Below are positions 270 to 64,000 of a stretch of 64,000 nt of DNA, one piece after another; position 1 is the stretch's first letter, and every line of letters starts with the position of its first letter. The position numbers were made by a program, and so were the translations under genes. This DNA is from Amoebophrya sp. A120 (taxonomy: Eukaryota; Protista; Dinoflagellata), in contig CAJINV010000015.1 of NCBI GenBank assembly GCA_905178155.1, forward strand, positions 271,309-335,308. Direction: 5' to 3'. The notes below the pieces were generated by a model. It was not told where the DNA came from. It did not search any database and was given only the letters and a program-made list of their open reading frames with translations.

Positions 270-1992
270 CTATACATCAAATTGATGTGAAGATATAAAT
301 GCAAGCTGTAGCTTTTTTCTCTGGGATACAGGGCCGCTTAGGTGCTTGGTCGCAGGATCTTTTTCGATCAACAGCTTTTGAACGTTTTCCTTCAACGCAG
401 CAACCAGTTCCTCGTTCGCGAGTAATTGCTTCCGCTCGATTTTCTCCTGCGACGGCATCGTATTCCTAAGTTCCGCCTCTGTCTTCTCGTTGATTTCATA
501 AAGCGCGTCTTTCGAGAAGGCTTTGATAAACACCGGGATGGATTGGAGAAGGAAATTGTACAGCTTCCTGTGCAGCACCTTCGGCAGACCCAGTGTGGAC
601 AAGGTTTGCTCGTCGTTGTCGTTTAAGCTGCCACCCATGATCATGTGCGAGGACGACCACTGGATCGTTGAGAATTTCAGTCGCGTGTTTACGTCCCTCT
701 CCGCCAGCAGAACCGATTCGGCGAGTTGTTCCATGTTGTCGAACAGGTTTCCAAGCGCCAATGTGTCGTCAGCTGTCGTCGTCGGGAGGTGTGCCAGGGT
801 TAGCTCGACGCTGGAAGAAGTTCCGACCAGCCGGTGGTATTCGGATCCCGGACTAGCGATCTTCTTGAACAGAGCGGCAAACTCGGCAATGTCCGTATTT
901 GTGTCAATGGGGATACCTTTGCTTGTTTCGGCAACATTTTCCCCTGGTGACGACAGCGAAACAGTGGCTTGTAACACCCCAGGCTCGACTCCGTGCTCAC
1001 TCAATTCGCTTTCCAGCTTCGTCGTTTTCGCCTCAATCTGATGTTTCTTGGCGACTTTCAGGTTGTTCAAAAAATTCTCTTCCTCCGCCGCGTCTGCTTG
1101 ATCGCGCGAGGAGGGTGAGCCTTTATCCGATGAAGAGGTCAACATCTGCGTAGTCTTTGTAGTCACGAGGTGGACAAAATTCTTGTGCATTTCATCTTGC
1201 AACATTAACAGGAGCGCACGGTTGTAAGACAGTTTTTCTGGTACTGGTGCTTTCATGACCGGTACGGCAAATGCCCGGATGCGCTTGGCAAACGGGTCTT
1301 GCAGTAACTCTACCAACGTGTCGAACGCGGTCTTGATTTCGTTCGTCTGATCGGCATATCGCTCCCGGGATGTTGAGAGCATCATCGATGCCCCGGTAGA
1401 AGTAGTTGAAGAAACCGCTGCCCCTTCGCCGGACTCCTTTCTTTTCATTTTACTCAGATCCACCGTGGGGTAGACCTGCAGAACGGATTGCAGTAGCGCG
1501 ACCACCTGGTTCGTGAACAATTTGTGCAGCCGAAGTTGCAGCTTTTTCACCCAAGTTTCAAGTGGTGTTTCCTCCCCGAGCGTGAGTTTCGTCGAAGCTT
1601 GCTTTGCGAGTTTGTCAACATCGTCTTCGTCCTGCTCATCTCCCGTCGTGTGAGAAGGCGCTTCTTCCAAGTGGTTCGATACGGCAATGTACAGAAACGC
1701 GATGCGCTTTAGCCAATACAACGGAAGCGGAACGAACAGCGGCGTTGTTGCAGCTGTTGTGATCGCCGCTGTTGCAGCTGTATTCCCGGTACTTGTGCTC
1801 TGCGGAATTACAGATGAACGACCCCCACTGGCGCTGCCACCTGATCTAGTCGCGGCTGATGGGTACCCAGCAGAAGAAGTAGAACCTCGTCCAGATGGGC
1901 TCTGTTCCTGTTGCTTCTGTTGCTGCAGTACTGCGGTTCGTGCTTTTTCCCGAGCTGCTTGCGCTTTTTCCCGGTTTGCGTCGGAAATGTAC
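270..1992 (-). CDS. Last visible exon of the giant gene
   Basis: ORF 270..1721 stays open upstream to the element at 1993 (..LEY|ISDANREK..). Confidence 0.85.
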
Positions 1993-4900
1993 TATCCAAG
2001 AAAAAAACTGTGTTAGTGTAAGTCTTTTGGGAAAACAGCATCACAAGTTTGTCTGCCATGGCAGGACAAACTTGTTATGCGCAGATACAAAGGGAAAACA
2101 CATAGGAAGCGAGCCGGTCATGCATGTCGAGCATGACAAGTGTAACTGTTTTGCATCTTCTGCATCACAGATTTACACTTACACAGTTTTTTTCTTGCAT
2201 ATGTACTCCAAAACTGGTAAAACGGTTTCGAACTCCACGTCTTGGCTGACCAGAACGCTCAGGTCGTACAGCCGCTGCAACACAGCATTGATTGTGTTTT
2301 TGCTTTATGAATTGTAAAAATGTCTGGGTCTGGAAGATTGCCAGATTTGTCATGCTAGTCTGGCATGACTCTGAACTCTGTATTGCGTGCCCGCGAAAAG
2401 GGCTTTCTACCTGTCATGCAAAAACGCAGTCTCTCATGCGGATTACGCAACTCTAAACCACGGAAAAACTTGTCATGCTGGACAGCGCATTACAGTGAGC
2501 TCACTCTTCCCTTTCTTGCATCACAAGTTTCCAGACCCAGACATTTTTGCATTTGATATGCTTTTCGGGGAACTAGAGCTCGACTTCTTCGCGATAATCT
2601 CTTCCAACCCGCAATCCGCAAAGAGGATCAAATTCTTATGGGACTTTCAAACGTAACATTCTCAACTGCTACATGCATTTGTCATGCAGAATCACGATCA
2701 TGCTTCTCACGATCAAGCTTCTTCGCATGAAAAGTTTTCGACAAACTAAATAGCATTACAATCTGTGCCAAATGATCTGTAATGCACCACGCGCGAGCAG
2801 GTCCCCCCTTTCACTTTTGCCATTGTTGCATTACAAATTCATGTAACAATTGAGAATGTAACGTTTGAGAACGCCATAATTCTTGATCATTTCCGCCGAC
2901 AAATCCATGGGGCGAGACAGCATGTCGCAGTACGCAATTTGCAACTCCTGCTTGTGCTTCTCGATCCTGTTACGTTCCTCCAAACTCCTCTGCGTTTGTT
3001 CCCCAGCACGTGCTGTTTGTTCAGAACCACTAGTGCTGTTACCCCCTACCATCTGCTGCAAGAAGTCCCCGGCCGGCGTTTGCCCACCGGCAAATTATCA
3101 AATGTAAAAATGTCTGGGTCTGGAAGATTAGAACTTGTCATGCTAAATCTGAAGCAGGGAAAAAACTGTGTTGCATGATTGCCAAAAGTTGTGCACTTTT
3201 GACCTAGTCGGGAGGCAGTTTCTCATGCAGGATAGGCATTAGAAAGGACCCGCAGAACCTGTCATGCTATGTCCTACATACCACACCTCATGGGTCATGG
3301 AAAATATGCATGACAAATCTAGAAATCTTCCAGACCCAGACATTTTTACATTTGGTACAAATAGTCCTCGTGCAACTGCGGACATGGAGTCACCAAGAAG
3401 GCCGAAAAGTGACTCATCCCGGCTTTGATTCTCCACGATCTTCAGTTGGAAGACGTTTTGGGGAAAAATTTTCCGCATGTTCTTCACGATATCAAGTGCA
3501 AATATGTCTCGGTCTGGAAGATGCGCGTGTTTGTCATGCATCTTCTCGTGCTGGACGACCACACTCACAGATGGTCTGGAATGCACACAGACGCATGGTA
3601 AGTTGTGCGTCAAGCGCTACGTAAAAAAATCAAAATAGGAATCCCGAACATGCTAAATCCTAAAACCCTAACTGCGTCGGCCACGGAACTGTGTCGAAGC
3701 GTGCCTTTATTTGGCGTTCATGCAACACAGATTTTTGTGCGATTCAAATTTTGCATGACAAGTTGCATCTTTCCAGAGCCAGACAGATCTGCAAAAATGC
3801 ATAAACAAAGTCCTGATACAATTTCCCGCGTGACCAGATGTCGGACCGCAGCGACAGCTCTTCCATTTGTTGCGTTTTTCCGTTTTCCAGGGGAACCTCG
3901 ACAATCCGCGTCTGCAAGGCGCCGGCGGCTTGCAGAAATTCCACGCCGAAGTTACGGAGGAAGCCGTGCCGGTGGAGATTAATCAGGTAGATGGACATTT
4001 GCGGTTTCGGGATTTGGCCGCCTCTACTCGAAGAAGAAAACATGCCCCCTGCAAATGTTCCGCTGCGCATCTGGTCTTCCCACACTCTTGCACACTCCTC
4101 TGCGACAGCGCTCATGTCCATTTCGTTTTGCAGGGCGGCCCGCCACAGCTGGTTTTTCAAATCCATCGCTTCTTTCAACGCCTTTGCTTGCTCGGGCCCG
4201 CCCGGTTGGTAGAATTTCAAGTCCAACTCCCTGTCAATCACACCGGAGAGCAGTCCTGCCTCGTCAGCGTCGGGCCCGAGTTGCAAAATGGCATACTGCT
4301 TCCGCAAAAGCCTGTCATTTTCAAACTTCTTTTTCTTCTCCGGTTCTGGGCTGAGCAACTCACTGTCCTTATTTTTCACCTTCTCGTCCCATTCTTGCGC
4401 ATATTTGTCGCCCCACTCGATGATCTCGGCGTGCACAATCTCCGCCATAGAGCTCAATTCCACGAGCGACACCTCGGCGTCAGCCGCGAGGGAAATCTTT
4501 TTTGCCGAGGAACTAGCAGTGGACACCGGAAACAGGACCGTGTTGAAGAGCTTCAGTGTCTCTCTGCAGTGCTTGCGCTGCCACGGCTTCTGGTTCTTTT
4601 CCTGCATGATTGTCGCTTCGGCATGATCTTCTTCGACTACACCGTTCGCCTGCACAGTACTAGTCGCTACGGTGGTCGTCTGGTCGCAAAACGCTAGCGA
4701 TTTCAACAGCGCAGACGATAACAGAAGACTTCTCCGCTCCTCATCGCTCGTGGAGGTTGGCAGCGGAAAGCGGGTCACCAAGCGCGTGTCGAGTTGCGAT
4801 GCGCCGATTTCCGGAGAAATAGGTCCTCCACCCCGGGAAGTACTAGACGTAATCGTGGCGTCAAGAACATCTGGCGACGCTTCGAAGCTGCCTGGCCGGG

Positions 4901-7900
4901 TTCCGGTTAAGCGCAGGTTGAGGATGGTCTGCACGCTCCGCCAGAGCTTCTGCACGTACTCGATGGTTTTCGTGGTGGAGTGGTCCTGTTCCAGCCGTCG
5001 GGCGGTCTCGTACATGGAGAGAGTCTCAAGATTACTGATCTTCTCCCGCTTTTCGCGCTCCGCCCGTTGGGTCTCTGTTTCCGGGGGCGGGTCGTCGCCA
5101 CCGCCGCCAGCACCAGTAACAGATCGAATTTGTTTCACGAATGCCGGCTTCGCAGCATCAGCGGCGTCACCAGCTGCTTTCAGCGTTTGAGAACCTAATT
5201 TCTCTCCCATTGTGCGAAAAAGAAAAACCCATCCGGTTGTCGTCTCAGCGGGTTTATTTTTCGCCGCTGAAGCGCTTGGCGTCATGGGCTTGGAAGTACT
5301 TTTTTTTACCGGGGACGCACTCCCTTCATCGGGAACACCATCTTCATCATCATCATCACCAGACCCCGCGTTCATACTCATGTCGGCAAGATCGGCAGCC
5401 TCTTTTCTTCTCGCCATCTCCTGCATCAGGAATTTCTGCTCTTTCCGTCTCTCCTGCTCCCGAAGATGGGACAACACATTGGAGTACTCGCGAATCACTT
5501 CGTTGCCCAGAGGCTCATCCAACACTAGGTCATCGGACGAGGTGACCGCCATGGAGATTTTGGGCACGAAAAACTCCGCCAGCACCTTGCCCCGGAGTCT
5601 TGCATACCGGTCCCAGGATTTCGTGCACTGATTCTGCTGTTGTTGTACCGCAAGCGTCGTTTGCAGCTGCGGTCCCTCGTTTCCTGTTTGCTGCATTTGA
5701 TGTTCTTCTGTCGTCCGACGGCTCATCTGTATCTTTTTCTGCATATTGACCACATGTTCCCCGAACACCTTCCCCAAAAACTCCGACTGCACCGTTCCGG
5801 CCACCGGTGCGATGCTCAGGATCAGCTGCCGCAGTTCCTGGAAAATCTGTCCGGCTTTGTCGCCCTCAATCTTCGAAGCGGCGGCCGAGTTTGCGGCTGT
5901 GGAAGGGGAAACGGTAGCCGCGGACGCTGCGGAGAGACTCGTGGCGGATAGTCCGCCCGTGGTCTGCTCCAACGTGAAAAGTAGGGAGACGATTGACTCG
6001 ACCAGGTGAAACAAGGCCTCCGTAGACCGCACATCCAAGCGCAACAAATCTGCCGCGCCGGCGGTTGAAGCAGAGCCACTGTTTGATGCACCGGGTGCAG
6101 CTCCTCCTCCACTCGGGCTGCTGGGCATCTCTGGGGAAGGAACAGGGGACGTTCCTGCATCGTCTTCGTCGGAATTATCGCCTTGGGTGTCCTCCAGGTC
6201 GTCATCTTCGCCGATTATACGCGGACTGAGGTATCCTGTGTAAAAACGTCCCCACCCCATAGTCAAGATGGGGATTTTGCAACACAAACCTAGGAGTTTT
6301 GGGAGTCACGCATGACAAGTTGCGCTATGCAGTGTAGTGCAGGTTAGCAAGTGCAGCCGCATCACAGATTCACACTCATCTGCTCATCCTGTTCACAGCA
6401 TCACAAATTTCAAAACACGATTGGAAATGGCTTTCTCTCTCATGGGGATGCGCATTACAAGTCTTCCTGTCTTTGCAAATCTGCATTACAACTCTGGTGT
6501 GGGTACGTTTTTACTCAGGATATGAGGGCCGGGATATTCATATTTCCCGTTCGCCCTTGCGGTAATGTCAAAGATCCAGTTGCTTTCGGGCCGCGTCTTT
6601 TCGGACTAATTGCCTCGATGATTCCCTTATCAAATGCAAAAGTGTCTCGGTCTGGAAGATTGCAACTTGTCATGCTCTTTTTGGACTCTACTAAACAAAT
6701 TTGTGTTGCACGACCAGCAAGAGGGGCACAGTTACAGTTTGTGCTACACGGGCAGGGCATTTCTCATGCGGAAGGTGCATCAGGGCGCCCTCTAAAAGTC
6801 TGCGATGCTAGGCCATGCATTACAGGCATCATGGGTCATGAGATATATGCATGACAAGTCTTGCATTCTTCTAGACCCAAACATTTTTGCATTTGATATC
6901 CCTGGTGGGTCATATCCTCGAGACCGTCCATTGAGATTCCCATGGACCTCGGCATTTCTTGAATCGGCGTCATTACATTCGTGCGCGGGATGGGAGTCGC
7001 CGGACCCATAGACGACGCTGCGGCACTGTAAGCAGGGCTTTGTTGTAGTTGTTGTGCCGCCAGTTGACGTTCTCTCACAAGCGCGTGGTCAATAGAATCA
7101 CTCCTGGGCAGAGACCCCGGTTGGTTGATCTGCGATTGCTGGAAAGAGCGCTCGGTTGTAGTTCCACCCGCGGAAATGAACGTTCGCTCAACAGGTTGTA
7201 CTTGTTGCGGAGGTTCTTGTTGTTCCACAGTCCGTTTGCAAATCGTTTCGACCTGGCTGCGCATCATCGGGATGCCGATTTTCAGAATTTGCGCGAATTT
7301 TTCAAACAGGAAATAGGACCCGTGCAAAATGTTCTGCTTCCGTTGCTCGATCATGACGCGCAGCAAATGCAACAACCTGTCCGTGGACTGCAAGTTCCAG
7401 TTGGACAAAGTGTGCGTGTTGTCAAGCCGTGGTAAGGCTTTCAACGTACGGTCGAGAAACGCGTCAATCACATCTATCATGGAATCCGGGATCGAGCGCG
7501 ATTTGTTCTTCAGGTATTGGAAAAAGACCGGCGTGGATTTCTTCTGCGAAATCCTTTCTAATTCAATAGAGGAGATCGGCTCGTGGGTTTTGAGAAACAG
7601 CGCCTTCTGCAACTGGGTTGCTAAAACCACTTCTGGATTATTTTGCGTCTGCTCGTCAATGAATTCTCCCTGGTCGCCGGCGTCGCTCTGTGGCGTAGTG
7701 TCTGTTTCCTCCATGTTTATGCCGCCTGTTGGGGAGTTGGCCGAGTTCACACGTCCCACTCCTCGTTCCGAGGAAGCTGACAGACTCGAGCCAGAACGAA
7801 TGGGGAGGCGGATTCCTGCAGCCCGCTGAGATTGTTCTTCGGATGCACGACGTGTAACACCAGTAGAACCGCCACTGAGCGTACTCTGCACCCGCTGCTC

Positions 7901-10900
7901 CAAGCGTTGCGCTTCCGACGTGTTGTAGTCCGGCGACTGTCCGGCTTGGGAAGATTCCTCTTCTTCGTCCCCCTCGTGGATTGGAAAGGTCCCCTCACGC
8001 ATCAACGCGTCCGCGCCTGCGGATTCCGAAAATCCGCGGGCACGGCGGCCCTGCGGTGAACTGTCGTCGTTGTCGTCATCTGCCGAAACACCGCCTGGAT
8101 TTTGGCCTCCCGCCCCGGCGGAGGAGGAGGAGAAAATCACATCCGTCGCTCTCGCCGCGTGCTCCATCTGTCGCGCGGCCGCCTCGAATTGCAGCAGTCG
8201 AGCTAAATCCATGGAAATTTCCGGTAATTTCACACTCTGGCTGTTCTGCGCCGCGGTAGCAGCTGCTGGGAGCGGGAATGCGGAGGTGGTTGCGGTTGTA
8301 CCAAGTCCGGAACCACCTGCAGCACTGCTTCCCGCATTAGAAGTATTCAACCCGGCAACGGTGAACGCATTGTTGGTCACGTAGGACATCAAAATCTCAA
8401 AAGCCAGTCTCCTTTCCTCCTTTTTCAGCGCGTAAATCTTCGTATCCCGCATGTTCATCATGCCGGATGACGCAGCGCCTCCTCCGGACGAGGAAGACAC
8501 CGAGATCGTGACGGCTGCCCGTTCTAACAAAATGTCCTTTAAAAACGTCAACGCAATCTCCGGGAGAATGAGATTCAATTTTTGAATCTTCGCGATTCGG
8601 TCGTTGAAGAGTTTTTGAGTGGGGGAGGTGGTGGATGAAGAGTGTTTTAATACAGTGTCGCCTTCTGTTTGTTCATCATCCACAACATTATCATCCGACA
8701 CGTGGATTTGCAACAACTTCAGCAACTCCAACTTCACCTGCCCTTTCAGATTCACCAGGTTATTGCCCCCGGAGTCGGAGGATACTAAAACGACCGCGTG
8801 GATGATCTCCTCCCAGAATTCCGTGGTGAACTTCATGAACGGCAACTTCTGCAAGGTTTTCAGGAATGTGGTCAACTTCTCGCTGTTCCAGAGCAATTCT
8901 AACCTGTGGAGGTCATCCGTGTTCTGGTTCATCTTGTTCTTCTTGTTTCTGGCATTACCTGAGCCCCCAGCGGGTCCGAACGAGGAAGTTCCACCCGCAA
9001 TCGCCATGGCGGCTTTCGACATTTTGCTCACGGAAGACGAGAGCTTGCTGTTGCCGGAAGTCCAGCTAGTAGGGTAGGATGGGAACACTTCTTCGCGCAA
9101 GACGTGCCGGATGATCTCGGTGTATTGCGGTAGCGCCTCTTCCAGAGACAGGAGCCACAGCGTCGGCTCGAGATAGGCGGATTGGCTCGCAATCTCCCGG
9201 GTCGTCGGGACCGCAGTGGCTTGCAAGAGATAGTGCCACACGTACTGCCGTTCCCGTCTTTCCCGCTCTTTCATAGCGGCTTCCTCCGCACTGAGTGCTG
9301 CGCCGGCTGCCTGCGAAGATCCTCCTCGGCGAGCGGCTGCAGCGTAGTTATCAGCGTTTGATTGCCTACTATTCCCCTTCTCCTGTCCAAAGTCCAAGGA
9401 ACTCTGGTTGATCAAAGTCCGCTGCAGGTTCGTCCGCATCGCCAAGACCAAAGCGGCGCGGCGCTGCGCAAATTGGTGCAAGGAATCGATGGTGGCGAGC
9501 TGCCCGCCGAAGAAGGTTTTTTCCGCCGGTTTGTTGTTCGCGATCAGCGCCGCGGTTGTCAAATGGTGTCCGACGGGCAGGTTGCTGTAATCCACCTCGT
9601 CGTCCGCTTTGTTTCCGTCGCTTTTCACGATGTCGACGATGTTCATGTCCATCTCAATGACCGCAGCGGACGGGAGTTTCGCAATACCGGCCTCCTGCGT
9701 CCCCGATACCACGGACCGGATCACTTCGGATTTTTCGTAGGATTTCCACTTTGCAATTTCCGCGACTTTGGCGAATTTCTGCAATTTCTTCTGCGCTTCA
9801 ACGAAGATCAACTGCTTCAAAACGAACTGCTGCAACCCCGTGATGATCTGTTTGGACATCTGCAGCGCCTGCTTCTCGATCTCGTTAAATTCGTGTCGCG
9901 CTTCCCGGGTTTTCAGAATCGAGTGCTGGCGGTTCTGCTCCAAGATCGCCAGCAGAGCGTTGTTTGACTCGAAGTATTTCGCTTCGACATCGTCGAGAAA
10001 GACGATGGAGGTGGGAAGAGCTGTACTACCAACTGACGCCTGATGTAGTTGTTGTCCCGCCCCACCAGGGTTCGAACCCGAGGGCCCTTGCTGTTGCTGC
10101 TGACCTGTTGCGCCACCTTGCTGCGCATTACCGCCAATCACGGCCGCCTGTTCCCTCGCAGCCATGTTGTTGGTGCAACAAGCCGCCGTCATGATTGCGC
10201 TTTCCAAGTCTTCCTTATCTTTCGCCACAGCGTCGCGCCAGTTGTTCTCCAGCTCCGCGTTGGGAGAACCGGTAAGAAGCGTGCGGAAAAGCGGAAAGAG
10301 CTCAAAAACCACCGGGTACTCGTCTTCCTGATCAATTTCCTCCTCTGCCCCCTCACCAATATCCTTCGCGTCACCAGCGATTAGACCGGGCGACCTTTCT
10401 GCTTCGCTGGAGGCCGTGGACTTGATGCTGTCTTTTCTGCTGAAGCTCTTAGGAGTGGAGGTGGAGCCGTCTCCAATGCGAGGATCAGACGCAGAAGATC
10501 CGGTTCGCTGTGCCGTCGGGGTTGGTTGGCCCGAGGAGGAAGACGCGCTGCCGATGCTTGGCTGGGCCGTCATTTCCTGTCCTCCGTCTACATCCATGGC
10601 ATCTTCGGGGGCTCCGTCTGCATCGTACTTAATAACTTGCTCCGCCCCAGATTCGCTAATGCTAACTTTCCTCGCAGCTCTAGTTGAAGGTGTTCCCTGG
10701 CGGGGCGAGGCGGCTGGAGCGGCTTCCTCCCCTATGCTGGGTAAAAACGTCCCCGCCCCAGAGTTGTCACGCAAATCTGCATGCCAAAAAAGTTTCTCAT
10801 GCGGAGCCCCATGAGAAGCATTCTCTAGTTGTGTTTTGGAGTTTGTGATGCTAGAATCAGCATGATGTCCTAGATCTGTGACGCTGCTGAGCTAGCGAAA

Positions 10901-55900: not shown

Positions 55901-58900
55901 CTCCGAGTCCTCAGATGGAGAGTCCTCATCTTCTGAGTCGCTGGGCTCCGACGAGGAGTCGGTGCTCCCCGGTGATTTTTTCTTCTGCTTCTGTTTGTCT
56001 TTCTTCCCACCGACCGCCTTTTTACCGGCACTGGAGGCTTGTCCCCTCGTGCTGTCGCTTCCAGCTCCTGCGGGTGTTTGTGGAGATGAACGCGGGTCCA
56101 TGTCCACATCCGCGTTTATCTCTCCTGAAACAGCTGCGGTCTGCCCGTCTTGTTGATGGTCCTGCATAATATGATCGCCTCCACCCAGTGCTGCACCACC
56201 CCCGAGGTGGAAGGCAGAAGTGCCTCCACTACCACCCTGCAGCGCCGCGGAGATGCCGATCTGCACGAGGTCTAGAGAAGAGCTGCTCTTCCGTTCCGTC
56301 TGCTGCAGAATCAGCTCACCGAGCAATCGTGTCAAGCTAGTTCTGCTCTTTTTGCCGCGGTCCTGCTTTGGCGCCTCAAACTCCTCTTTCAGCACGGAAA
56401 TCTTGGTGTTGTCCATGCTGGTAATGCCACCTGCGATGTGATCATTTGTAAAAACGTCCCCAGCCCAGAGTCAAGATGGAGATTTTGCAACACAAACCTT
56501 GAAGCTTTGGGAGCCACGCATGACAAGTTGCAGACTGTAGTGTAATACAGTTTAGCAATGGAAGATGAAGCCGCATAGAAAAGCCATCTCCTTATACTGT
56601 TTACAGCATTACAAGTTCCAAAACACAATGGGAAATGCCTCTCATGGGTATGCGCATTACAAATGCTCTTGTGCTTGGAGATGTGCATGACAACTCTGGG
56701 GTGTTTTATGTACTGGAAAAGACCAAATATAATGACAACTCTGGGGTGGGGATGTTTTTGCACCGGATAGATGAGATCCAAGAACGAGTCCGTCAAGTAG
56801 CTCACGACCGCCTGATTGCACCCGGAGGTTGTAGAGGGGGAAGAGCCACCAGATTGAGCGCCGGCAAATGACGGGTCTGCCAGGTAGGTTTGCAAAGCGG
56901 AAACCAGGCTCATATGCGACGACGCATGTTGAAAGTTATTCCCATCGCTCACGCGCGGAATCTCGAAGGTTCCGTCTTCGTTATCGCACGAAAAAAACAG
57001 GTTTAGTGTAACTTTCTATGGAGGAATAGCATCACAAGTTTTCTCTGCATGACACAGAAAACCTGTCATGCGTAGCTAGTACGTGAAAACACGCGCGAAA
57101 AGAGCCTCTGATGCATGTCCAGCGTGACAGCTGATATTGTCTTGCGTCGTCTGCAATACAAAGTTCGACTTACACAGTTTTTTTCCTGCGATATTCGTTC
57201 CTCGGCGTGTCGTACAACTCATTTTCGCCGTATCAAATGTAAAAATGTCTGGGTCTGGAAGAATCCGAACTTGTGATGCTAAATTTGGACTCTAAAAATA
57301 TCTGTATTGCATGACCAGCAAGAGGAGCCACATTTGTGCTACGCGAGGAGGGCATTTGTCATGCGGAAATGGCATCAGGAAGCCTTCCAAAAATCTGTGA
57401 TGCTGGGTCATGCATTACAAGCATCATGGGTCATGCCAGACAAGCATGACAAGCCTTGCATTCTTCCAGACCCAGACACTTTTGCAATGCATACGCCGTC
57501 GGACTCGCCACCGTCGTTATCTGACTCGTTTTTCTCTTCCTCTGCTACCATCTTTTGCACGGATTTCGCTACAGCTTCTTTTCTGCTCTCTTTCTGCTCG
57601 GCGTCGTCGGCGGCCGTGTTGCCAGTCGCATCGGCGGTAGTGGCGAGATGGTCGCCAGCGGTACCCGACTGCCCTCCCATCTGCATCGCCGAATGTCCGT
57701 GGCCCTCTTCATCGTCTTCATTTTCGCTATTGTCGCCATTCTCAGTCATATTCTCGTCATTATCGCTGTCCCCAGGCGGAGTTTCATCCGCTGCTCCTTC
57801 ACTACTCCTAGAAGGGGCATGATTACTGCCTTGGCGCTGATCGGAAGACAGCCCTGTAGCCGTAGCGCCGTCCTCCTCTGTGTCACCGAACATTGAACTG
57901 GGGTCCCGCACTCTTGGTTCCACATCCGGCGCGGGTTGTACTTTCACCGGCGGGATAAACTCTTTGTACTTGTTATCCGAAGGAAAAATCCCCCCTCCCC
58001 ATATCAAGAAGGTGCTTCTCAGAAAATTTGTGTTGCTGATTTGTGACCACAAATCCTTGTGTCTTGCAAGAAGGCAACTCTACAGTCTCCGCCGCACTAT
58101 GCGGCCAATTTGTGACGTTACTTGAGCAACAGCATAGACATTTGTGATGCTAAGCGTCCACGTCAGAAGCTCTGTACTCAGGCACGGCGTATGCCTGCAG
58201 TCCTCTACTGCAGGACAGCTCTGATTTGTGTACACAAATCCAGCTTCAGAAACTCCGTTTTGATATGGGGAGGGGGGATTTTTCCTTTCGATACTTGTAG
58301 ATTTTCCGGGCCCCCGTCTGCGCTCCGCCAGTAAGAAAGGGGAAGGAGTGCGTGCTCATCAAGCCCGTGTTTGAACTACTTCCGCTCGCGTGGTCTTTCT
58401 GCTCGGGCGCCGGTTCGGCCGTGACTTTTTTGGTGCCAATGACTTGGTCGTACAGGCGGAGTTGCAAAATCGCGCGCTGCCGCAACGTGAACATCACCGA
58501 GTTCAAAGTTTCTTTCAAACCCCCAGTAGAACCAGAGTTACCTCCACTACCCGAGGGCGACCCCGTAGCGTCGAACGTGACCGGGGTTTGCGCCTGCAGC
58601 CACTGGGCGTGTAAGAAAACGGACTTCGCGATCTGCTTCTGCAGAGCCTCGTGCTCCAGCTTTTGTTGGTGAGCAAAGGCCGGCGAAATCATGAACCCAA
58701 GGTTCTTTTGATCATCCTCGTGCCGGACTCTGCTTTGACGTAGTTGCATTTGTCCACGCTTCAACATCCAAGAACTACTAGAAACCGCTGCAGATGCTGA
58801 CCGTCTTGCCAACCAGCTGGTAATCACCGGCGTGTTTGAAGCTAGGAAGACGTGCGCCAATTCCGCAACTTCCTCGTTCTGCAATAATGAAGACACTTCC

Positions 58901-61900
58901 ACGGTGGCTCTACTTCCCGCCGTGGTTGCACCAGAAAAGGCGACGTCTACTTGGTCGGTCGCGTGCGCGACGTGGCGCTGCAGAATGTAGAACGCATCCG
59001 TGACACGGGACTCCTCGGGGGCAACGCGGAAGAAGGAGGAAGCAAAGGCATCCATGCTTTCGGTGTTCCGGATATCAAAGGGAAAAATCCCCCCACCCCA
59101 TATCGACATGGAAATCTGTGACGCGGGATCTGTGTACACAAATCGGCTCTGTCTTGCAGTAGAGACCTGCAGACAGATACGAAGCGGGATTAAGGGTGTT
59201 TTGGTGTAGGCCCCTAGCAAGGTAGAGACATTCTCTGTAGGCCGGACAGCATGACAAATTGCCTGCAGAACGCGGCGGGGTTTTTTTAAGTATTTGTCTT
59301 CTTGCAATACAGAGACGATTTGTGACCTCAAATCAGCATCACAAATTTTGAGAAGCATCCCGTTCTGGTTTGGGGAGGGGGAATTCTTCCTCACAATACC
59401 GGAAGTGACGCGTGAACTCGAGCTGCATCGCCGCGAAAACCTCTTTATCCTCTGCAAAAGTATCGCACTCGTATGAGTGGCAGTGTTCGTTCGTTCGTTG
59501 TGGATCGGCTCTGCCGACCGGGTAACCCAACGCCTTGCATACAAATGACCGACTTAGGCGAACCCCGTTGCGGGACGTTGTATGACAGATCTATCATCTT
59601 ACCTCAGTCAGCATTACAAATTCTATTTTTCCTTTTGCAAAAATTTGTCATGCTCTTTGGGACTAGTACGATACTTTTGATGCACTGCATATTCTTCTCG
59701 CTCCCTGGTCAAATCTTTGGCAATGAAAAAGTTCACCTTCGGTTCGAAAATGCTCGTCGCACTGCCCTGGTGCAGCTGTGTACTGATTTGCTCGCGCTGC
59801 AGCGCGGCCGTGGAAGGACTTGCGGTTCCTCTGGCTTGCTGTTGTTGTTCAGCATCGCGCTCAACATCGGTGCTGGAGCCTCCGGAGGTTGACGTTCGTC
59901 CCATCCACCAGCTTCGTCCTGCGCTCGAGGCACCAGCCTGCCCAGGACTACCTGCTGACCCCCCACTCCTATCAAATGCAAATATGTCTCGGTCTGGAAG
60001 CTAGCTCAAGCTTGTGATGCTGTTTGGCGAATCATGTGAGCGCCTTCATTGACAGCTAAGCGTGACAAGTTTTGGAGTTGCTATAGTGTTGCCTATCTGC
60101 CTGACAAACTGCGTTTCTGCATGATAGAGAAACTACTTGGCTTTTCGGCGGCGTGCATGACAGATCGTTGAGAGCCATGCTAGCCGTGCATGACAAATCC
60201 TGCATTCTTACTTCCAGACCCAGATCGATATTTGCAAACCATAACTTCCGCCCCCTCCCGACTGCTTTTGCGGCCCCTTTCCGTTCTCGGCAAAAACCTG
60301 GTCGCGGAGGTTTCGCACAACAACGTCAAAGTCCTGGGCTTTCAGCAGCGATTTAAACACCGCACTGCGGGCATTGGTGAAGGTGTGAAAGATTTTCAGC
60401 GCCAAAAGCTCGTTGGAAAGTTTCGCTTCAATCAAGTCGCTTGTCTTATCAAATGTAAAAATGTCTGGGTCTGGAAGATTGCAACTTGTCATGCTAAATC
60501 TGCAGCATGCAAAAATCTGTGCTGCATGATTACCAAAAGTCGTCTAGTTTGACCAAGTCGGGAGGTAGTTTCTCATGCAGGATAGGCATTAGAAAGGTCG
60601 CGCAGAATCTGTCATGCTAGGTCCTGCATTCCAGACCTCATGGGTCATGGAAAAGCAGCATGACAAATCGCGCATTCTTCCAGACCAAGACATTTTTACA
60701 TTTGATATGTCTTCCAGTGGTACAAAACTTCCGGCCGGACCGTAGTGGCGATGATGCTGTCGGGATTGTTGTTCAAGAAAATCTCATCGAAAATGCCCTT
60801 CATTTCCTGTTATCAAATGTAAAAATGTCTGGGTCTGGAAACTTGTGATGCTGGTTGGCGTCTCATGATGAGGTTACAAATGCTGGCTCAGCATGACAAG
60901 TTTCTGAGCTCCTAGGTGTTGCCTATTCTGCATGACAAACTGCCCTTCTGCATCACAGAAAAACGGAGCTCTTGGGTAACGTGCATGACAGATTTAAGAG
61001 TCATGCCAGACAATCATGACAAACATGAATTCTTCCAGACCCAGACATTTTTACAGTTGATACCTGTTGGCGCTCGATTCTTTCCCGCATGTTCGAAGAT
61101 GAGGTCGTCGGCAAAAACGCCTGCGCANCTTCCAGACCCAGACATTTTTACAGTTGATACCTGTTGGCGCTCGATTCTTTCCCGCATGTTCGAAGATGAG
61201 GTCGTCGGCAAAAACGCCTGCGCAGAGGACGAAAACGGGGAACTGCTCGGAAGTAGGGGATTCAAGCGGCGAAGTGTGTCCAGGGGGATGAGGAAATACC
61301 GTTGCAGCAAACTGTTCCGCGCGATGGTCGAGACGATTTCCGGTCGGTACTGCACGCGTAGCAGTTTTGGCTTCGGATTATACATGTTGATGTGCTGCGA
61401 GTTTGCACTTGTGCTTGTCCCAAGCGACGCATTCAGCATATCCCGATGCTTTACGATTTGCGCAAACTCTTTCTGCTTTTTGCGCAGCAGTTGGTGCATG
61501 TTGTAGTGGAAAACTTTCGCTTTCGGGATCTTCTTCGCCGATGTCCTGTCGCGAGACGGCAGGCCTTGTTGTCCTCCATCAGGAGCTCTATTCCTGCTAG
61601 TACCCCCAGCTCTCGTCGCCGTGCCAGCTGCAACACCGTCTGCTTGGTCGGCCGAGTCGGAAGACTTTCCCAGCACAATGTGCGAGAGCAAGTTGGGCAG
61701 TACGGCATTGGGGTTCAACATGGAGGAATGGCCGCTAGTAGAGGTGGCAGCTCCACTGTGCTGCTGCAAAGAATATTCTTCAATGACGCGGCGGTCACCC
61801 TCACCCATCTCGAGATTCAGACGCAGCATCTCGGTGAATTTGCCCAGCAAGTCTTGCAGGACCGGCAAGCCGGGCTGCTGGTCCTCTCGTGCAAGAAAAG

Positions 61901-63742
61901 TAGACTGCTTCGTCCTTTTCTGGCAGGAGTAAGCATCTGTGCACGATGCAGCTCCTGTTCCAGCGTTGAGGAAGAAGGCGTGCAACTGGGCTTTCTTCCT
62001 CTCGAAAATCAGTTTTTGCACCGCAAACTTCTTCACCGCGCGTTGCATACGGCCACGGACAATCGGCAGCATCTCGTGCGCCACTCTGTTCGACTTCTTG
62101 TCGTCTGCTGTTGGGTCATACCACGGTGATTCAGCTCGCACGTTCCAGTCCCTTAGCAAGGCTATGGGAGTGTCGAGTTTTTCCGCCCAAGCCGCTTTAT
62201 TTTTGATCGTCTTTTGCATTGTCTCCTGTTTTTCCATCACGTCCACTGCGACCTTAAACAAGGTCCTCCCGAGCGCCCGCAGCTCGTCCTCGGAACACCA
62301 GCGTCCTAACGCCGCTACTTCGCCGGGGGACAGGCGCACGGCCTCAGTCTGAGTTTCCAGAAATTCTCCGAGACGCTTCAGCTCTTCAGCCTTCACCTTT
62401 TCGGACTGTTCTCCAAATTGCAGCGAGTTAATAGCGGGCTTCTCAGCACGATCTCCAAGGAGGGCCCGGATGTCGAGAAGCATCGCCAGGCGTTCTCCGA
62501 CTCGTTTCAGGGGTGAGGATTCCGGGGCGAAAGCTGCTTCTGACTCGGGAGTGAGCGCGTCCGCGACCCGATAGCGCTGGAGCCAGTGGGCACCGGTAGA
62601 GGAAACGAACGGGATGTACTTATTGTTCCTGGCTTCCCAGTGAAGGACCTCATTGTTTGTTGGGTCGTTTTCTCTGATGGGCCCGAAAAGGTCATCAAAC
62701 ACACCGAAAATTATGGATGCGTCAGGTTTGAAATGGTCAAAGTTGAAATGGTTTGTCATGCATAAAACGGATACCAGTTAGACCTACAGTTTGTAGTCGG
62801 CGCATGACAAATTTTCCCGGTCCTGGAAGCGAGTCTGTCATGCGGTTTAGGGCAAAAGAGCTGCCTTCTGTCATGCTAGTCAGCAGTCCAACTCCTGACC
62901 CTTATCAGGACTACAATCTGCCTTCCGTGCGTCCTCTGCAATAGAGTCACTTTTTGAATCGCATTTTATGCATGACAAACCATTTCAACTTTGTCGATTT
63001 CAACTCTGACACAACCATAAAAATCTCTCTGAGATTCTCGACCCGACTCTCGGAAATCGCCTTCTGGAGGGCCGTATCAAATGCAAAAGTGTCTGGGTCT
63101 GGAAGATAATTACCAGGTTTGTCATGCATATTTTGGATGACCCATGATGTCTGTGATGCACGCTCTAGCATCACAGATTTTTAGAGGACTTTGCGATGCC
63201 TCTGCCGCAAGAGAAATGCCCTCTCCGCGTAGCACGAACTGGAGTTCTCTTGCTGGTCACTCATGCAATACAAATTTTTTCAGAATCCAGAGACAGCATT
63301 ACAAGTTTAGAACCTTCCAGACCCAGACATTTTTGCATTTCATAGGCCCAACCCAGACTCTGTGCGGCATGCCCGACATCCACATCTTCCTCGGAGGTCG
63401 ACGAAGTTTTTCGCAGCCTGGAAGTCGATCCTCTCTGCTATGGCGTTCTCAACTGTTACACTCTCAACTGTTGCATGGACTTGTGATGCAAGAATGGGAA
63501 AAGTGAAAGGGGGGGCATTACGCGTCTTGCATGACAGATTTGGCAAAGATTATCATCCTGTTTCGTTTGGCCCTTCCAGGATTTGTCACGCAGAACAGCT
63601 TGATCGTGTAGACTAGATGATCATGGTGCTTTTGCATGAGAAATCATGTAACAGTTGAGAATGTAACATTTGAGAACGCCATATCTGTCGAGTCGGCGAG
63701 GCTGCGTCCTCTTCCACATCCAGGAAAACATCTGCGCCAGCA
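270..63742 (-). CDS. Giant 5'-partial multi-exon gene, ~14,190 codons after splicing; unknown function (helical/coiled-coil blocks alternating with S/G/A/Q/E/D-rich low-complexity linkers)
   Basis: All long ORFs are on the minus strand and run into TIR elements. The frame stays continuous and stop-free when each element+5 bp, the GT-AG intron 49594-50847 and the 97-nt N-gap duplication are removed. First in-frame stop is TAG at 270-272 (3' end uncertain). Confidence 0.85.
1993..2201. mobile_element. Introner/non-canonical intron, family D
   Basis: TIR tatccaagaaaaaaactg / cagtttttttcttgcata; DR tgtac. Confidence 0.9.
2306..2558. mobile_element. Introner, family A
   Basis: TIR core aaaaatgtctgggtctggaa; DR tgctt. 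Confidence 0.9.
2637..2878. mobile_element. Introner, family C
   Basis: TIR tatgg..tcaaacgt.acattctcaa; DR attct. Confidence 0.9.
3096..3357. mobile_element. Introner, family A
   Basis: A-type TIR (right end ggta); DR caaat. Confidence 0.9.
3490..3803. mobile_element. Introner, family A (degenerate)
   Basis: Decayed A-type TIR; DR cacga/aacaa; frame restored. Confidence 0.8.
3804..6231 (-). CDS. Large internal exon of the giant gene
   Basis: Core of ORF 3744..6287, bounded by TIR elements. Confidence 0.9.
6232..6522. mobile_element. Introner, family B
   Basis: TIR tatcctg.gtaaaaacgt.cccac.cca; DR tgagg. Confidence 0.9.
6628..6898. mobile_element. Introner, family A
   Basis: A-type TIR; DR tccct. 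Confidence 0.9.
6899..10732 (-). CDS. Large internal exon of the giant gene
   Basis: Core of ORF 6836..10774. Confidence 0.9.
10733..11011. mobile_element. Introner, family B
   Basis: B-type TIR; DR tcccc. Confidence 0.9.
11062..11276. mobile_element. Introner, family D
   Basis: D-type TIR; DR ctgga. Confidence 0.9.
11277..14084 (-). CDS. Large internal exon (contains a predicted coiled coil)
   Basis: ORF 11132..14029 extends open to 14084. Confidence 0.9.
14085..14349. mobile_element. Introner, family A
   Basis: A-type TIR; DR gtttc. Confidence 0.9.
14350..16802 (-). CDS. Large internal exon of the giant gene
   Basis: Core of ORF 14231..16957. Confidence 0.9.
16803..17127. mobile_element. 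Introner, family A (strongly degenerate)
   Basis: Remnant gggtctggaa / ttccagacgcagac; DR tgccg/tggtg; frame restored. Confidence 0.7.
17540..17833. mobile_element. Introner, family B
   Basis: B-type TIR; DR ttttg. Confidence 0.9.
17960..18212. mobile_element. Introner, family A (inverted near-copy of 2306-2558)
   Basis: A-type TIR; DR ctttg. Confidence 0.9.
18295..18529. mobile_element. Introner, family C
   Basis: C-type TIR; DR tccgc. Confidence 0.9.
18640..18921. mobile_element. Introner, family B
   Basis: B-type TIR; DR gaaga. Confidence 0.9.
19027..19355. mobile_element. Introner, family E
   Basis: TIR tat..ggaaaa.cccccctccccatat; DR accgc. Confidence 0.9.
20040..20248. mobile_element. 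Introner, family D
   Basis: D-type TIR; DR ttttt. Confidence 0.9.
20249..21527 (-). CDS. Internal exon
   Basis: ORF 20225..21478 extends open to 21527. Confidence 0.85.
21528..21794. mobile_element. Introner, family A
   Basis: A-type TIR; DR ccgtc. Confidence 0.9.
22087..22336. mobile_element. Introner, family A
   Basis: A-type TIR; DR ttcgg. Confidence 0.9.
22394..22673. mobile_element. Introner, family B
   Basis: B-type TIR; DR ccggc. Confidence 0.9.
23273..23512. mobile_element. Introner, family F (long, divergent interior)
   Basis: TIR tat..tgcaaaagtatcgcact; DR gctcc/ggtcc. Confidence 0.8.
24489..24754. mobile_element. Introner, family A
   Basis: A-type TIR; DR atgcc/gtgcc. Confidence 0.9.
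24755..26480 (-). CDS. Internal exon
   Basis: ORF 24337..26454 extends open to 26480. Confidence 0.85.
26481..26787. mobile_element. Introner, family E-like
   Basis: TIR tatgaaaatgaaaaatgcccc / ggggcatttttcattgtaata; DR ggtat. Confidence 0.85.
26832..27082. mobile_element. Introner, family A
   Basis: A-type TIR; DR gaaca. Confidence 0.9.
27269..27428. mobile_element. Introner, family F
   Basis: F-type TIR; DR tcccg. Confidence 0.9.
27429..28520 (-). CDS. Internal exon
   Basis: ORF 27398..28471 extends open to 28520. Confidence 0.85.
28521..28807. mobile_element. Introner, family B
   Basis: B-type TIR; DR tggtc. Confidence 0.9.
28808..30005 (-). CDS. Internal exon
   Basis: Core of ORF 28800..30056. 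Confidence 0.85.
30006..30159. mobile_element. Introner, family F
   Basis: F-type TIR; DR gattt. Confidence 0.9.
30204..30476. mobile_element. Introner, family A
   Basis: A-type TIR; DR ttcaa. Confidence 0.9.
30563..30770. mobile_element. Introner, family D-like
   Basis: TIR tatggagagaaaaaag / cttttttcttttgata; DR tcctg. Confidence 0.85.
30830..31085. mobile_element. Introner, family A
   Basis: A-type TIR; DR gccgc. Confidence 0.9.
31306..31626. mobile_element. Introner, family E
   Basis: E-type TIR (left end cat); DR ggcgg/agcgg. Confidence 0.9.
31627..33969 (-). CDS. Large internal exon
   Basis: Core of ORF 31579..34035. Confidence 0.9.
33970..34294. mobile_element. Introner, family E
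   Basis: E-type TIR; DR tgttg. Confidence 0.9.
34778..35029. mobile_element. Introner, family A
   Basis: A-type TIR; DR ggagc. Confidence 0.9.
35080..35224. mobile_element. Introner, family F
   Basis: F-type TIR; DR tgcct/tagct. Confidence 0.85.
36014..36333. mobile_element. Introner, family E
   Basis: E-type TIR; DR gaggg/caggg. Confidence 0.9.
36869..37118. mobile_element. Introner, family A
   Basis: A-type TIR; DR tttcg. Confidence 0.9.
37170..37314. mobile_element. Introner, family F
   Basis: F-type TIR; DR cagat. Confidence 0.9.
38307..38556. mobile_element. Introner, family A
   Basis: A-type TIR; DR cctgt. Confidence 0.9.
38600..38838. mobile_element. Introner, family C
   Basis: C-type TIR; DR tcatc. 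Confidence 0.9.
38839..41848 (-). CDS. Large internal exon
   Basis: Core of ORF 38726..41956. Confidence 0.9.
41849..43184. mobile_element. Large 1336-bp TIR element/intron, family G
   Basis: ~60-bp TIR tatgg..gtcaacgacgcttttttcaagtatgctga.aatttt; perfect DR tttga; GC-rich interior; frame restored on removal. Confidence 0.9.
43688..43932. mobile_element. Introner, family C
   Basis: C-type TIR; DR ccact. Confidence 0.9.
43984..44266. mobile_element. Introner, family B
   Basis: B-type TIR; DR tgtcg. Confidence 0.9.
45070..45307. mobile_element. Introner, family C
   Basis: C-type TIR; DR aggca/aggcg. Confidence 0.9.
46079..46229. mobile_element. Introner, family F
   Basis: F-type TIR; DR ggggc/tgggc. 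Confidence 0.9.
46276..46537. mobile_element. Introner, family A
   Basis: A-type TIR; DR ctatg. Confidence 0.9.
46538..47578 (-). CDS. Internal exon
   Basis: Core of ORF 46419..47783. Confidence 0.85.
47579..47840. mobile_element. Introner, family A
   Basis: A-type TIR; DR cacag. Confidence 0.9.
47980..48230. mobile_element. Introner, family A (inverted near-copy of 26832-27082)
   Basis: A-type TIR; DR gcgtt/gcgtg. Confidence 0.9.
48300..48583. mobile_element. Introner, family B
   Basis: B-type TIR; DR gtctt. Confidence 0.9.
48655..48819. mobile_element. Introner, family F
   Basis: F-type TIR; DR accgc/tcctc. Confidence 0.85.
48983..49140. mobile_element. Introner, family F
   Basis: F-type TIR; DR cctca. 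Confidence 0.9.
49594..50847 (-). other. Canonical GT-AG intron (1254 nt) flanked by 7-bp direct repeat AGGTACC
   Basis: Sense strand CAAG|GTACCT...GATCAG|GTACC; length is a multiple of 3; joins ..SCRPQ-GT-NRAEG.. in frame and removes stops at 50840 and 49625. Confidence 0.75.
51008..51272. mobile_element. Introner, family A (left tip resembles F/B)
   Basis: tatcctgtgcaaacatgtctgggtctggaag; DR aggac/acgac. Confidence 0.9.
51778..52068. mobile_element. Introner, family B
   Basis: B-type TIR; DR gtaga. Confidence 0.9.
52146..52298. mobile_element. Introner, family F
   Basis: F-type TIR; DR tcgcc/tcggc. Confidence 0.9.
52620..52939. mobile_element. Introner, family E
   Basis: E-type TIR; DR gccga. 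Confidence 0.9.
53046..53297. mobile_element. Introner, family A (DR lost)
   Basis: A-type TIR; flanks agaaa/ggcgc; removal of element+5 still restores frame. Confidence 0.85.
53350..53500. mobile_element. Introner, family F
   Basis: F-type TIR; DR aatta/agttc. Confidence 0.85.
53748..54059. mobile_element. Introner, family E
   Basis: E-type TIR; DR tggtc/ttgtc. Confidence 0.9.
54524..54792. mobile_element. Introner, family A
   Basis: A-type TIR; DR cgctc. Confidence 0.9.
54893..55171. mobile_element. Introner, family B (near-copy of 18640-18921)
   Basis: B-type TIR; DR gggtg. Confidence 0.9.
55172..56439 (-). CDS. Internal exon
   Basis: ORF 55160..56416 extends open to 56439. Confidence 0.85.
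56440..56769. mobile_element. Introner, family B (left end gat; duplicated subterminal segment)
   Basis: B-type TIR; DR gatgt/gatga; atgacaactctggggtg occurs twice near the right end. Confidence 0.85.
56982..57193. mobile_element. Introner, family D
   Basis: D-type TIR; DR ttcgt. Confidence 0.9.
57231..57493. mobile_element. Introner, family A
   Basis: A-type TIR; DR cgccg. Confidence 0.9.
57974..58293. mobile_element. Introner, family E
   Basis: E-type TIR; DR cttgt. Confidence 0.9.
59073..59398. mobile_element. Introner, family E
   Basis: E-type TIR; DR ccgga. Confidence 0.9.
59446..59691. mobile_element. Introner, family F with extra internal sequence
   Basis: F-type TIR; DR ctctt/ttctt; ~90 bp longer than typical F. 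Confidence 0.85.
59970..60243. mobile_element. Introner, family A
   Basis: A-type TIR; DR actcc/acttc. Confidence 0.85.
60447..60707. mobile_element. Introner, family A
   Basis: A-type TIR; DR tgtct. Confidence 0.9.
60811..61062. mobile_element. Introner, family A
   Basis: A-type TIR; DR cctgt; right end is repeated after the N gap (ending 61159). Confidence 0.9.
61032..61224. repeat. Exact 96-bp tandem duplication around a single N (probable scaffolding artefact)
   Basis: 61032-61127 = 61129-61224, N at 61128; removing 97 nt restores the frame. Confidence 0.9.
61160..62711 (-). CDS. Internal exon
   Basis: Core of ORF 61014..62759. Confidence 0.85.
62712..63019. mobile_element. Introner, family H (single copy here)
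   Basis: ~55-bp TIR tatgg.tg.gtcag..ttgaaat...caaagttgaaatggtttgtcatgcataaaa; DR aaaat. Confidence 0.85.
63075..63344. mobile_element. Introner, family A
   Basis: A-type TIR; DR ggccg/ggccc. Confidence 0.9.
63439..63683. mobile_element. Introner, family C
   Basis: C-type TIR; DR tctgc/tctgt. Confidence 0.9.
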
Positions 63743-64000
63743 TATCAAAATGAAAAATCCCTCCTTCCCATATCAAAACGGAAATCTGTGATGCGGGATT
63801 TGTGTACACAAATCGCATTTGTCCTGCAGGGAAGCACTGCGCGCAGATGGCAAGCCCAAGAGGGGGCCTTTTGGTGTAGGGGCCCAGCATGGCAGACGTC
63901 TGCCCTGTAGGCCTTGAAGCATTACAAACCGCCTGCATAATATCGCGGCGGACTCTCTGGATTTGCCTTCTGGCAAGACGGACAGGATTTGTGGTCACAA
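63743..64000. mobile_element. Introner, family E (truncated by window end)
   Basis: Left TIR tatcaaaatgaaaaatccctccttcccatatc and E-type interior. Confidence 0.85.

Follow-up and report, generated by a model that had tools for sequence, protein, structure and literature searches.

A Stop-Free Frame of 14,183 Codons Interrupted by 71 Introner Elements in the Parasite Amoebophrya sp. A120

Introner elements and non-canonical introns are an established feature of Amoebophrya genes (Farhat et al., 2021; PMC7789003). In the sections of that paper available here, they are enriched in genes without known function, bear the arm motif TAT-N7-AAA in strain A120, and coexist with GT-AG introns, which account for ~30% genome-wide. 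Its table gives 44,016 and 79,744 nt as the longest exons in the genus; with exons on this scale (44 and 80 kb), very long genes are not unheard of in this lineage, and giant genes may already be present in public annotations. The introner-rich A120 genes in the available passages of a later study (PNAS, 2025; PMC12130899) combine several element families per gene, tens of introns, and both TIR and non-TIR sources. Beyond the genus, the available text on PKZILLA-1 and PKZILLA-2 (4.7 and 3.2 MDa; 10.1101/2024.01.29.577497) describes megadalton proteins whose genes escape routine annotation.

Here, we analyze a 64,000-nt stretch of the A120 genome (contig CAJINV010000015.1, positions 271,309 to 335,308; hereafter, the window), the minus strand of which carries one continuous reading frame hidden by elements, a DNA-level observation that is confirmed below. 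Like the introners in the available sections of PMC7789003, these elements possess inverted repeats, TAT-N7-AAA, short border repeats, a size of ~250 nt, a GC content below that of exons, and no fixed splice dinucleotides. The published border repeats are 3-5 nt long and varied in position, whereas those in the window are uniformly 5 nt and lie directly outside the arms. In contrast to the ~30% genome-wide share, the window gene has no ordinary, non-repeat GT-AG intron; it gathers 71 introners in one frame and does not feature in those sections. Its intron density is 1.7/kb compared with 1.42/kb, and the GC content of the window is ~52% compared with 51.2% in A120 (PMC7789003). The combination of element families and sources matches that of the introner-rich genes in PMC12130899, the available passages of which contain no gene of 14,183-codon length and give no product. 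The elements also resemble MITE-like non-autonomous TIR transposons, being short, non-coding, and high in copy number, with TIRs and a target duplication; they would differ in acting as introns. The elements are as follows.

1993..63683, minus strand: 71 complete TIR introners with TAT...ATA ends, a 5-nt target copy after each (TIR scan and eye)
63439-63683, 63075-63344, 62712-63019, 60811-61159, 60447-60707, 59970-60243, 59446-59691, 59073-59398, 57974-58293, 57231-57493, minus strand: elements, automatic scan
56982-57193, 54893-55171, 54524-54792, 53748-54059, 52620-52939, 52146-52298, 51778-52068, 51008-51272, 48983-49140, 48300-48583, minus strand: elements, automatic scan
47980-48230, 47579-47840, 46276-46537, 46079-46229, 45070-45307, 43984-44266, 43688-43932, 41849-43184, 38600-38838, 38307-38556, minus strand: elements, automatic scan
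37170-37314, 36869-37118, 36014-36333, 34778-35029, 33970-34294, 30830-31085, 30563-30770, 30204-30476, 30006-30159, 28521-28807, minus strand: elements, automatic scan
27269-27428, 26832-27082, 26481-26787, 24489-24754, 22394-22673, 22087-22336, 21528-21794, 20040-20248, 19027-19355, 18640-18921, minus strand: elements, automatic scan
18295-18529, 17960-18212, 17540-17833, 14085-14349, 11062-11276, 10733-11011, 6628-6898, 6232-6522, 3096-3357, 2637-2878, 2306-2558, 1993-2201, minus strand: elements, automatic scan
56440-56769, 53350-53500, 53046-53297, 48655-48819, 35080-35224, 31306-31626, 23273-23512, 16803-17127, 3490-3803, minus strand: elements placed by eye
41849..43184, minus strand: long TIR element of 1,336 nt, 62-nt arms 85% complementary, perfect 5-nt repeat

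Seventy of the elements measure 145-349 nt and one 1,336 nt, for a total of 19,305 nt at 44% GC, compared with 55% in the frame. Their direct repeats are perfect in 50 cases and carry one mismatch in 15, two in 5, and four in 1. The repeat ends at 5 nt, with the next bases matching in just 18/71 and 14/71 elements, and the target sites show no strong base preference. A rough regular-expression sorting of the arms yields six families of 26, 12, 11, 9, 6, and 4 elements, plus 3 others; TAT-N7-AAA is present in 55/71 of the 5′ arms and 57/71 of the 3′ arms. A 9-nt subterminal motif common to the elements occurs in 251 copies within them (13 per kb) and in 5 copies within the frame (0.1 per kb). 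Depth in the DNA run X1 reaches the thousands over elements compared with ~28 in exons, and an Rfam search returned no matches.

Several individual elements and their distribution merit separate mention. The core of the long element (41849-43184) has a GC content of 65% with nested short inverted repeats; another copy occurs in run X7, where 41849-42306 is matched with 3 differences, and the element may derive from an autonomous parent by deletion. The flanks of element 53046-53297, which sits at the junction of an internal duplication, agree at 1/5 bases, yet excision with 5 nt keeps the frame. Insertions are clustered, with 28/71 internal exons of 110 nt or less against 12.3 expected, a number reached in none of 20,000 simulations, while no internal exon is shorter than 32 nt (P ~0.03). 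This pattern suggests local hopping or favoured insertion beside an existing element, with a minimum exon size.

Reconstruction of the frame followed a single rule, applied to the window alone: excise every TIR element together with 5 nt, and also one GT-AG intron, making 72 excisions.

63735..270, minus strand: spliced reading frame, 73 exons of 32-3,829 nt each
50847..49594, minus strand: GT-AG intron of 1,254 nt, both ends inside the 7-nt repeat AGGTACC

The spliced frame ends at the terminator TAG 272-270 and encodes 14,183 aa with no in-frame stop, a mass of 1.565 MDa, and a pI of 5.65. The original prediction had posited a stop-free minus-strand frame of ~42,560 nt, visible in the ORF track only as fragments of up to 1312 aa; exact reconstruction bears out both, giving 42,552 nt counted from 63735 or 42,559 nt counted from 63742, with a longest plain ORF of 1312 aa. 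The remaining two frames of the spliced sequence contain 527 and 478 stops, and removal of 0, 1, 3, 4, 6, 7, 9, or 10 nt with each element leaves 278-400 stops in every frame. Removal of 2 or 8 nt also keeps the frame, so this comparison sets the excised length modulo 3 only, the value of 5 coming from the direct repeat. All six cut registers inside the 5-nt repeat yield no stops. Stop-codon reassignment, reported for Amoebophrya ex Karlodinium in the portion of PMC12005148 available here, is not needed, as the standard code gives no in-frame stop.

Elements were detected by an automatic scan for inverted arms abutting a 5-nt direct repeat (one mismatch allowed), which produced 63 rows representing 62 elements and 1 assembly duplicate. 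Thereafter, nine inter-element segments had no open frame, and a tenth, the last, was closed only by the stop at 272. Eight of the nine were resolved by nine extra elements with the same arms and more decayed repeats, placed by eye at TAT/ATA-like ends after the stops had been noticed, and one by the GT-AG intron, which was chosen because its excision restores the frame.

Statistical support for the frame comes from phase, codon usage, and decay. Phase is kept at 26/26 automatically detected junctions whose two flanking exons each have one open frame (chance 4e-13); over all joins, hand-placed ones included, the corresponding chance is 4e-26. A three-periodic Markov codon model with leave-one-exon-out training prefers the modelled frame in 73/73 exons, with margins under 2 bits in five of them (0.9 bits in exon 51002-50848 and 0.3-1.6 bits in four other short exons). 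Copies of the direct repeat mismatch at 29/355 bases (8%), and element arms show a mean mismatch of 19% over their first 14 nt. At 4% neutral divergence ~68 stops would be expected, against a count of zero stops and frameshifts in 42.5 kb. As the frame has stayed intact while repeats and arms decayed, it still matters, and we infer that it is under purifying selection and hence that its product is made. Furthermore, target duplication implies an uninterrupted sequence before insertion, and the existence of the long frame at that time does not depend on present-day splicing of the elements. Eight exon-bearing pieces shown from X1 are covered at 17-28x with no differences, which makes a sequencing artefact untenable within 44100-64000.

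In line with the original prediction that GT-AG gene finders would split the frame into dozens of false genes, the gene is invisible to such programs, as only 4/71 elements present GT/GC-AG ends in at least one of the six cut registers and 67/71 do not. When the cut is placed one base upstream, T occupies position +2 in 71/71 elements, a possible handle for the spliceosome. The proposed history is as follows. Non-autonomous DNA transposons would have inserted into a pre-existing long ORF with almost no introns, 5 nt of target being duplicated at each insertion; in the pre-mRNA, pairing of their inverted repeats would direct the excision of the element and one repeat copy, with the donor +2 U coming from the first T of the 5′ arm if the cut falls one base upstream; and selection would keep the frame, so that the product is made. 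Retention of an element would break the frame in 70/71 cases, and a half-yield of full-length mRNA would thus need ~99% success per intron. Element 30830-31085 is the sole one whose retention keeps the frame stop-free, and it may represent an alternative insert of 87 codons.

The RNA runs barely cover the gene, and among the matches listed for positions 41,000-64,000 there is no RNA junction of any of its TIR elements; for 24000-33900 no RNA dataset is listed. Partial matches number 215, 4, and 550 in the raw-read runs X4, X5, and X6; almost all of them fall on elements at less than 99% identity, and exon depth over 41000-60900 is zero. Reads reaching 99% identity number 2, 0, and 0, so the strain (or stage) may be absent from these runs. 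X8 includes a single exon piece with an exact match, the 151 nt at 49424-49574. Hundreds of reads in X4 and X6 come from other element copies joined to unlike sequence; with X4 and X6 taken as RNA runs, some copies elsewhere are transcribed and retained in RNA.

The ends of the frame and one assembly feature near the 5′ side are given below.

63743..64000, minus strand: partial TIR element, 3′ arm ending at 63743, repeat copy at 63742-63738
311..328, minus strand: candidate introner 5′ arm, 13.7 bits, the frame's best match to the short-family arm (true arms 14.0-23.5 bits)
61032..61226, no strand assigned: 97-nt tandem duplicate, two copies parted by a single N at 61129

The partial element at 63743 keeps the frame open at the window edge, as predicted, and the gene runs on past it, its 5′ end lying off-window. 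At the other end, the coding score falls from position 328 on, and no partner arm or subterminal motif was found in the last 328 nt of the window; there is about an even chance that the gene continues past TAG 272 through a further element starting at 328. Positions 13-185, which do not look coding, contain an inverted repeat of 34 nt (31-64/85-118) and a direct repeat of 30 nt; this tail lies either after the stop or inside such a further element. The 97-nt duplicate is likely a scaffolding overlap artefact, and the model counts it as part of element 61159-60811. An alternative start for that element at 61062, in the second duplicate copy, was rejected in favour of 61159 as it breaks phase.

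The predicted protein is rich in Ala, Ser, Leu, and Glu and contains 35 Cys. It comprises 40 ordered blocks of 80-600 aa, with 26% of residues in low-hydrophobicity windows.

52323..54247, minus strand: internal duplication, aa 1823-1972 vs 1983-2112, 47% identical, the sole duplication
16372..31120, minus strand: central block, ~aa 6,530-9,700, with higher synonymous GC3, more Trp, and near-neutral pI

The two duplication copies carry different introners, and insertion therefore came after duplication. In the central block, GC3 at 4-fold sites is 0.75 compared with 0.57-0.61 elsewhere; its left edge, at aa 6,527, is sharp and adjoins a run rich in D/E and E/Q, and the amino-acid-normalised GC3 step there holds in ordered regions (+0.12 vs 0.00-0.03). 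The block may reflect either stronger selection or a fused gene, and the change in codon usage at aa 6,527 may be the trace of genes that were once separate. Across the 14,183 aa, no 19-aa window exceeds a hydropathy of 1.5, and a motif scan found no Walker A/P-loop, no 2A (NPGP), no MIDAS, and no HECT-end motif. Two single-sequence AlphaFold models were poor (pTM 0.19 and 0.38), and Foldseek with the better one returned nothing at E <= 0.001, a poor model that yields no interpretable fold result. The protein is likely soluble and, going by these poor models and composition, predicted to be mostly helical.

Homology searches agree with the prediction that no domain would be recognised, as nothing reached threshold in Pfam, NCBIfam, PHROGs, or PDB. 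For 58 exon pieces (13,925 aa), Pfam gave no match at its curated cut-off, the best E being 0.0035, and sub-threshold matches, mostly coiled-coil, were rejected; NCBIfam (29 pieces) and PHROGs (21 pieces) likewise had no threshold match, and PDB none for 4 exons. Exon pieces were searched one by one, and domains cut by introns lose score under this scheme. Larger sequence collections were queried with 6/58 exon pieces. With exon 24757-26475 (573 aa) as the query, phmmer found no match among 1.84 billion protein representatives. Word-seeded searches with three exons found none among proteins of 1004-2865, 2234-5000, and 283-902 aa, ranges of at most 5,000 aa in which a 14,000-aa record could not appear. 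Of the pattern matches in metagenome contigs, 0/114 and 0/160 were confirmed, and 0/7 in viral contigs. Literature searches listed no paper on this gene.

Known classes of giant protein provide further points of comparison. Titin is larger and built of repeated known domains. Giant P-loop proteins such as dynein, midasin, RNF213, and DUF3638 carry a Walker A motif with an AAA or helicase domain; within the window there is no Walker A and no Pfam match. A run rich in E/Q near aa 6,550 had prompted a DUF3638-like reading, which the lack of a Pfam match and of a P-loop led us to abandon. Helical solenoids of the HECT/UBR4/PIKK type end in a C-terminal catalytic domain, none of which is found up to TAG 272, where the frame may continue via a possible intron at 328. 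Membrane channel giants such as RyR and Piezo are marked by transmembrane helices, and the hydropathy profile of the product contains none. The domains of giant PKS/NRPS proteins of the PKZILLA type (KS/ACP/KR or NRPS) have no Pfam or NCBIfam match here. The PKZILLAs are larger and composed of repeated known domains (10.1101/2024.01.29.577497, in the text available), whereas the window protein, at least 1.57 MDa, is non-repetitive but for one duplication and has no detected domain.

The GT-AG join at 50847-49594 is the weakest of the model and the sole non-TIR join. The intron, which has no inverted repeats, is the core of a repeated element of ~1.3 kb at ~50879-49581 that would leave ~45 nt (15 codons) in the message. 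This element lacks inverted repeats or an evident target duplication, contains four copies of a 12-nt motif, and is repeated in the genome, with a 97% copy in X7 and raised depth in X1; as a side observation, it can be read as a second, non-TIR introner type. In X8 and X9, contigs continue from the donor side at 50843 directly to the bases after the acceptor (14/15 nt and 8 nt match). The X9 contig departs from the window sequence at 50879 on one side and after 49581 on the other, and is thus another copy of the ~1.3-kb element; the X8 contig may come from the window locus or from another copy, and as X8 and X9 being RNA is a guess, the junction could be DNA.

Taken together, the locus is probably a single Amoebophrya-type gene of at least 14,183 codons, from which 71 TIR elements and one GT-AG intron are likely spliced to produce a giant, soluble, predicted mostly helical scaffold protein. 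Its product would consist of ordered 80-600 aa blocks joined by S/G/A/T-rich linkers, with no membrane helix and no enzyme domain detected; its role as a structural or interaction scaffold is a tentative assignment that falls somewhat short of an even chance. The weak join leaves slim odds for a pair of co-oriented genes, the first at least 2,363 aa long and terminating at TAG 50842 and the second, after a 1.25-kb spacer, of ~11,777 aa, itself still giant, trans-spliced at AG 49594. Such an arrangement would explain why this join alone lacks inverted repeats and why exon 51002-50848 has nearly no frame preference, and it would fit the first Met, 43 aa past the acceptor, as well as the co-oriented gene blocks with trans-splicing in the genus (PMC7789003, sections available). 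It fits poorly with a GT-AG pair that preserves the frame from within one 7-nt repeat, with a stretch that is repeated in the genome and joined identically in the X8/X9 contigs, and with a coding signal that returns directly after 49593, ahead of the Met. Slightly less improbable is one frame with several products, either a protease-cut polyprotein or separate mRNAs arising from trans-splicing or polyadenylation within the gene, with the central block as a fused or captured gene. The sharp GC3 step and long flexible linkers would suit this reading, but no 2A motif, protease domain, or array of tandem units accompanies the one duplication, and no stop ends an upstream product. A spliced-leader-like motif is not above chance (3 matches on the plus strand vs 2.9 expected), and this lack of a leader relic argues against several mRNAs, a check that the original prediction had called for. 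Its alternative of a lineage-specific protein above 1.5 MDa or a polyprotein has therefore fared unevenly: the mass and the lack of any relative found agree with the former, and the polyprotein is disfavoured.

An unlikely candidate, though the least so among the alternatives to the single-gene reading, is a far-diverged, low-complexity-inflated member of a known giant helical family (HECT/UBR4-type ligase, PIKK, midasin, or DUF3638 type) with its signature domain off-window. The off-window 5′ end and perhaps 3′ end leave room for such a domain, the share of low-hydrophobicity residues would account for the inflation, and fast protein divergence is reported for the genus in the available sections of PMC7789003. 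Against this stand the lack of matches in all four domain and structure collections, for pieces searched singly, and of the Walker A, MIDAS, and HECT-end motifs. A dead gene full of unspliced transposons is very improbable. The missing exon reads in X4-X6 and the 67/71 elements lacking GT/GC-AG ends would agree with it, but it is at odds with a frame of 42.5 kb that remained intact as its repeats and arms decayed, and elements of this kind are RNA-validated as introns in the genus (PMC7789003, sections available). Extending the preferred single-gene reading, a bolder one is conceivable but doubtful: a protein exceeding 14,000 residues, without domains and open at one end, perhaps at the other too, from one transcript, made through more than 70 hairpin-guided non-canonical splicings at ~99% each, that represents a new syndinian class of megadalton orphans with a central block of ~3,000 residues captured from another gene.

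Introners being already known, the locus is an extreme case of a known mechanism, with no relative of its product found. It offers a sharp test of how introners are spliced, in that the 21 imperfect repeats would let junction reads fix the cut register per base. The rule of excising an element with one 5-nt repeat is in turn a DNA-only route to annotating such genomes, in which length-capped databases and GT-AG predictors miss this type of gene. If expressed as one mRNA, it would encode one of the longest non-repetitive proteins without a known domain, in a parasite that keeps algal blooms in check.
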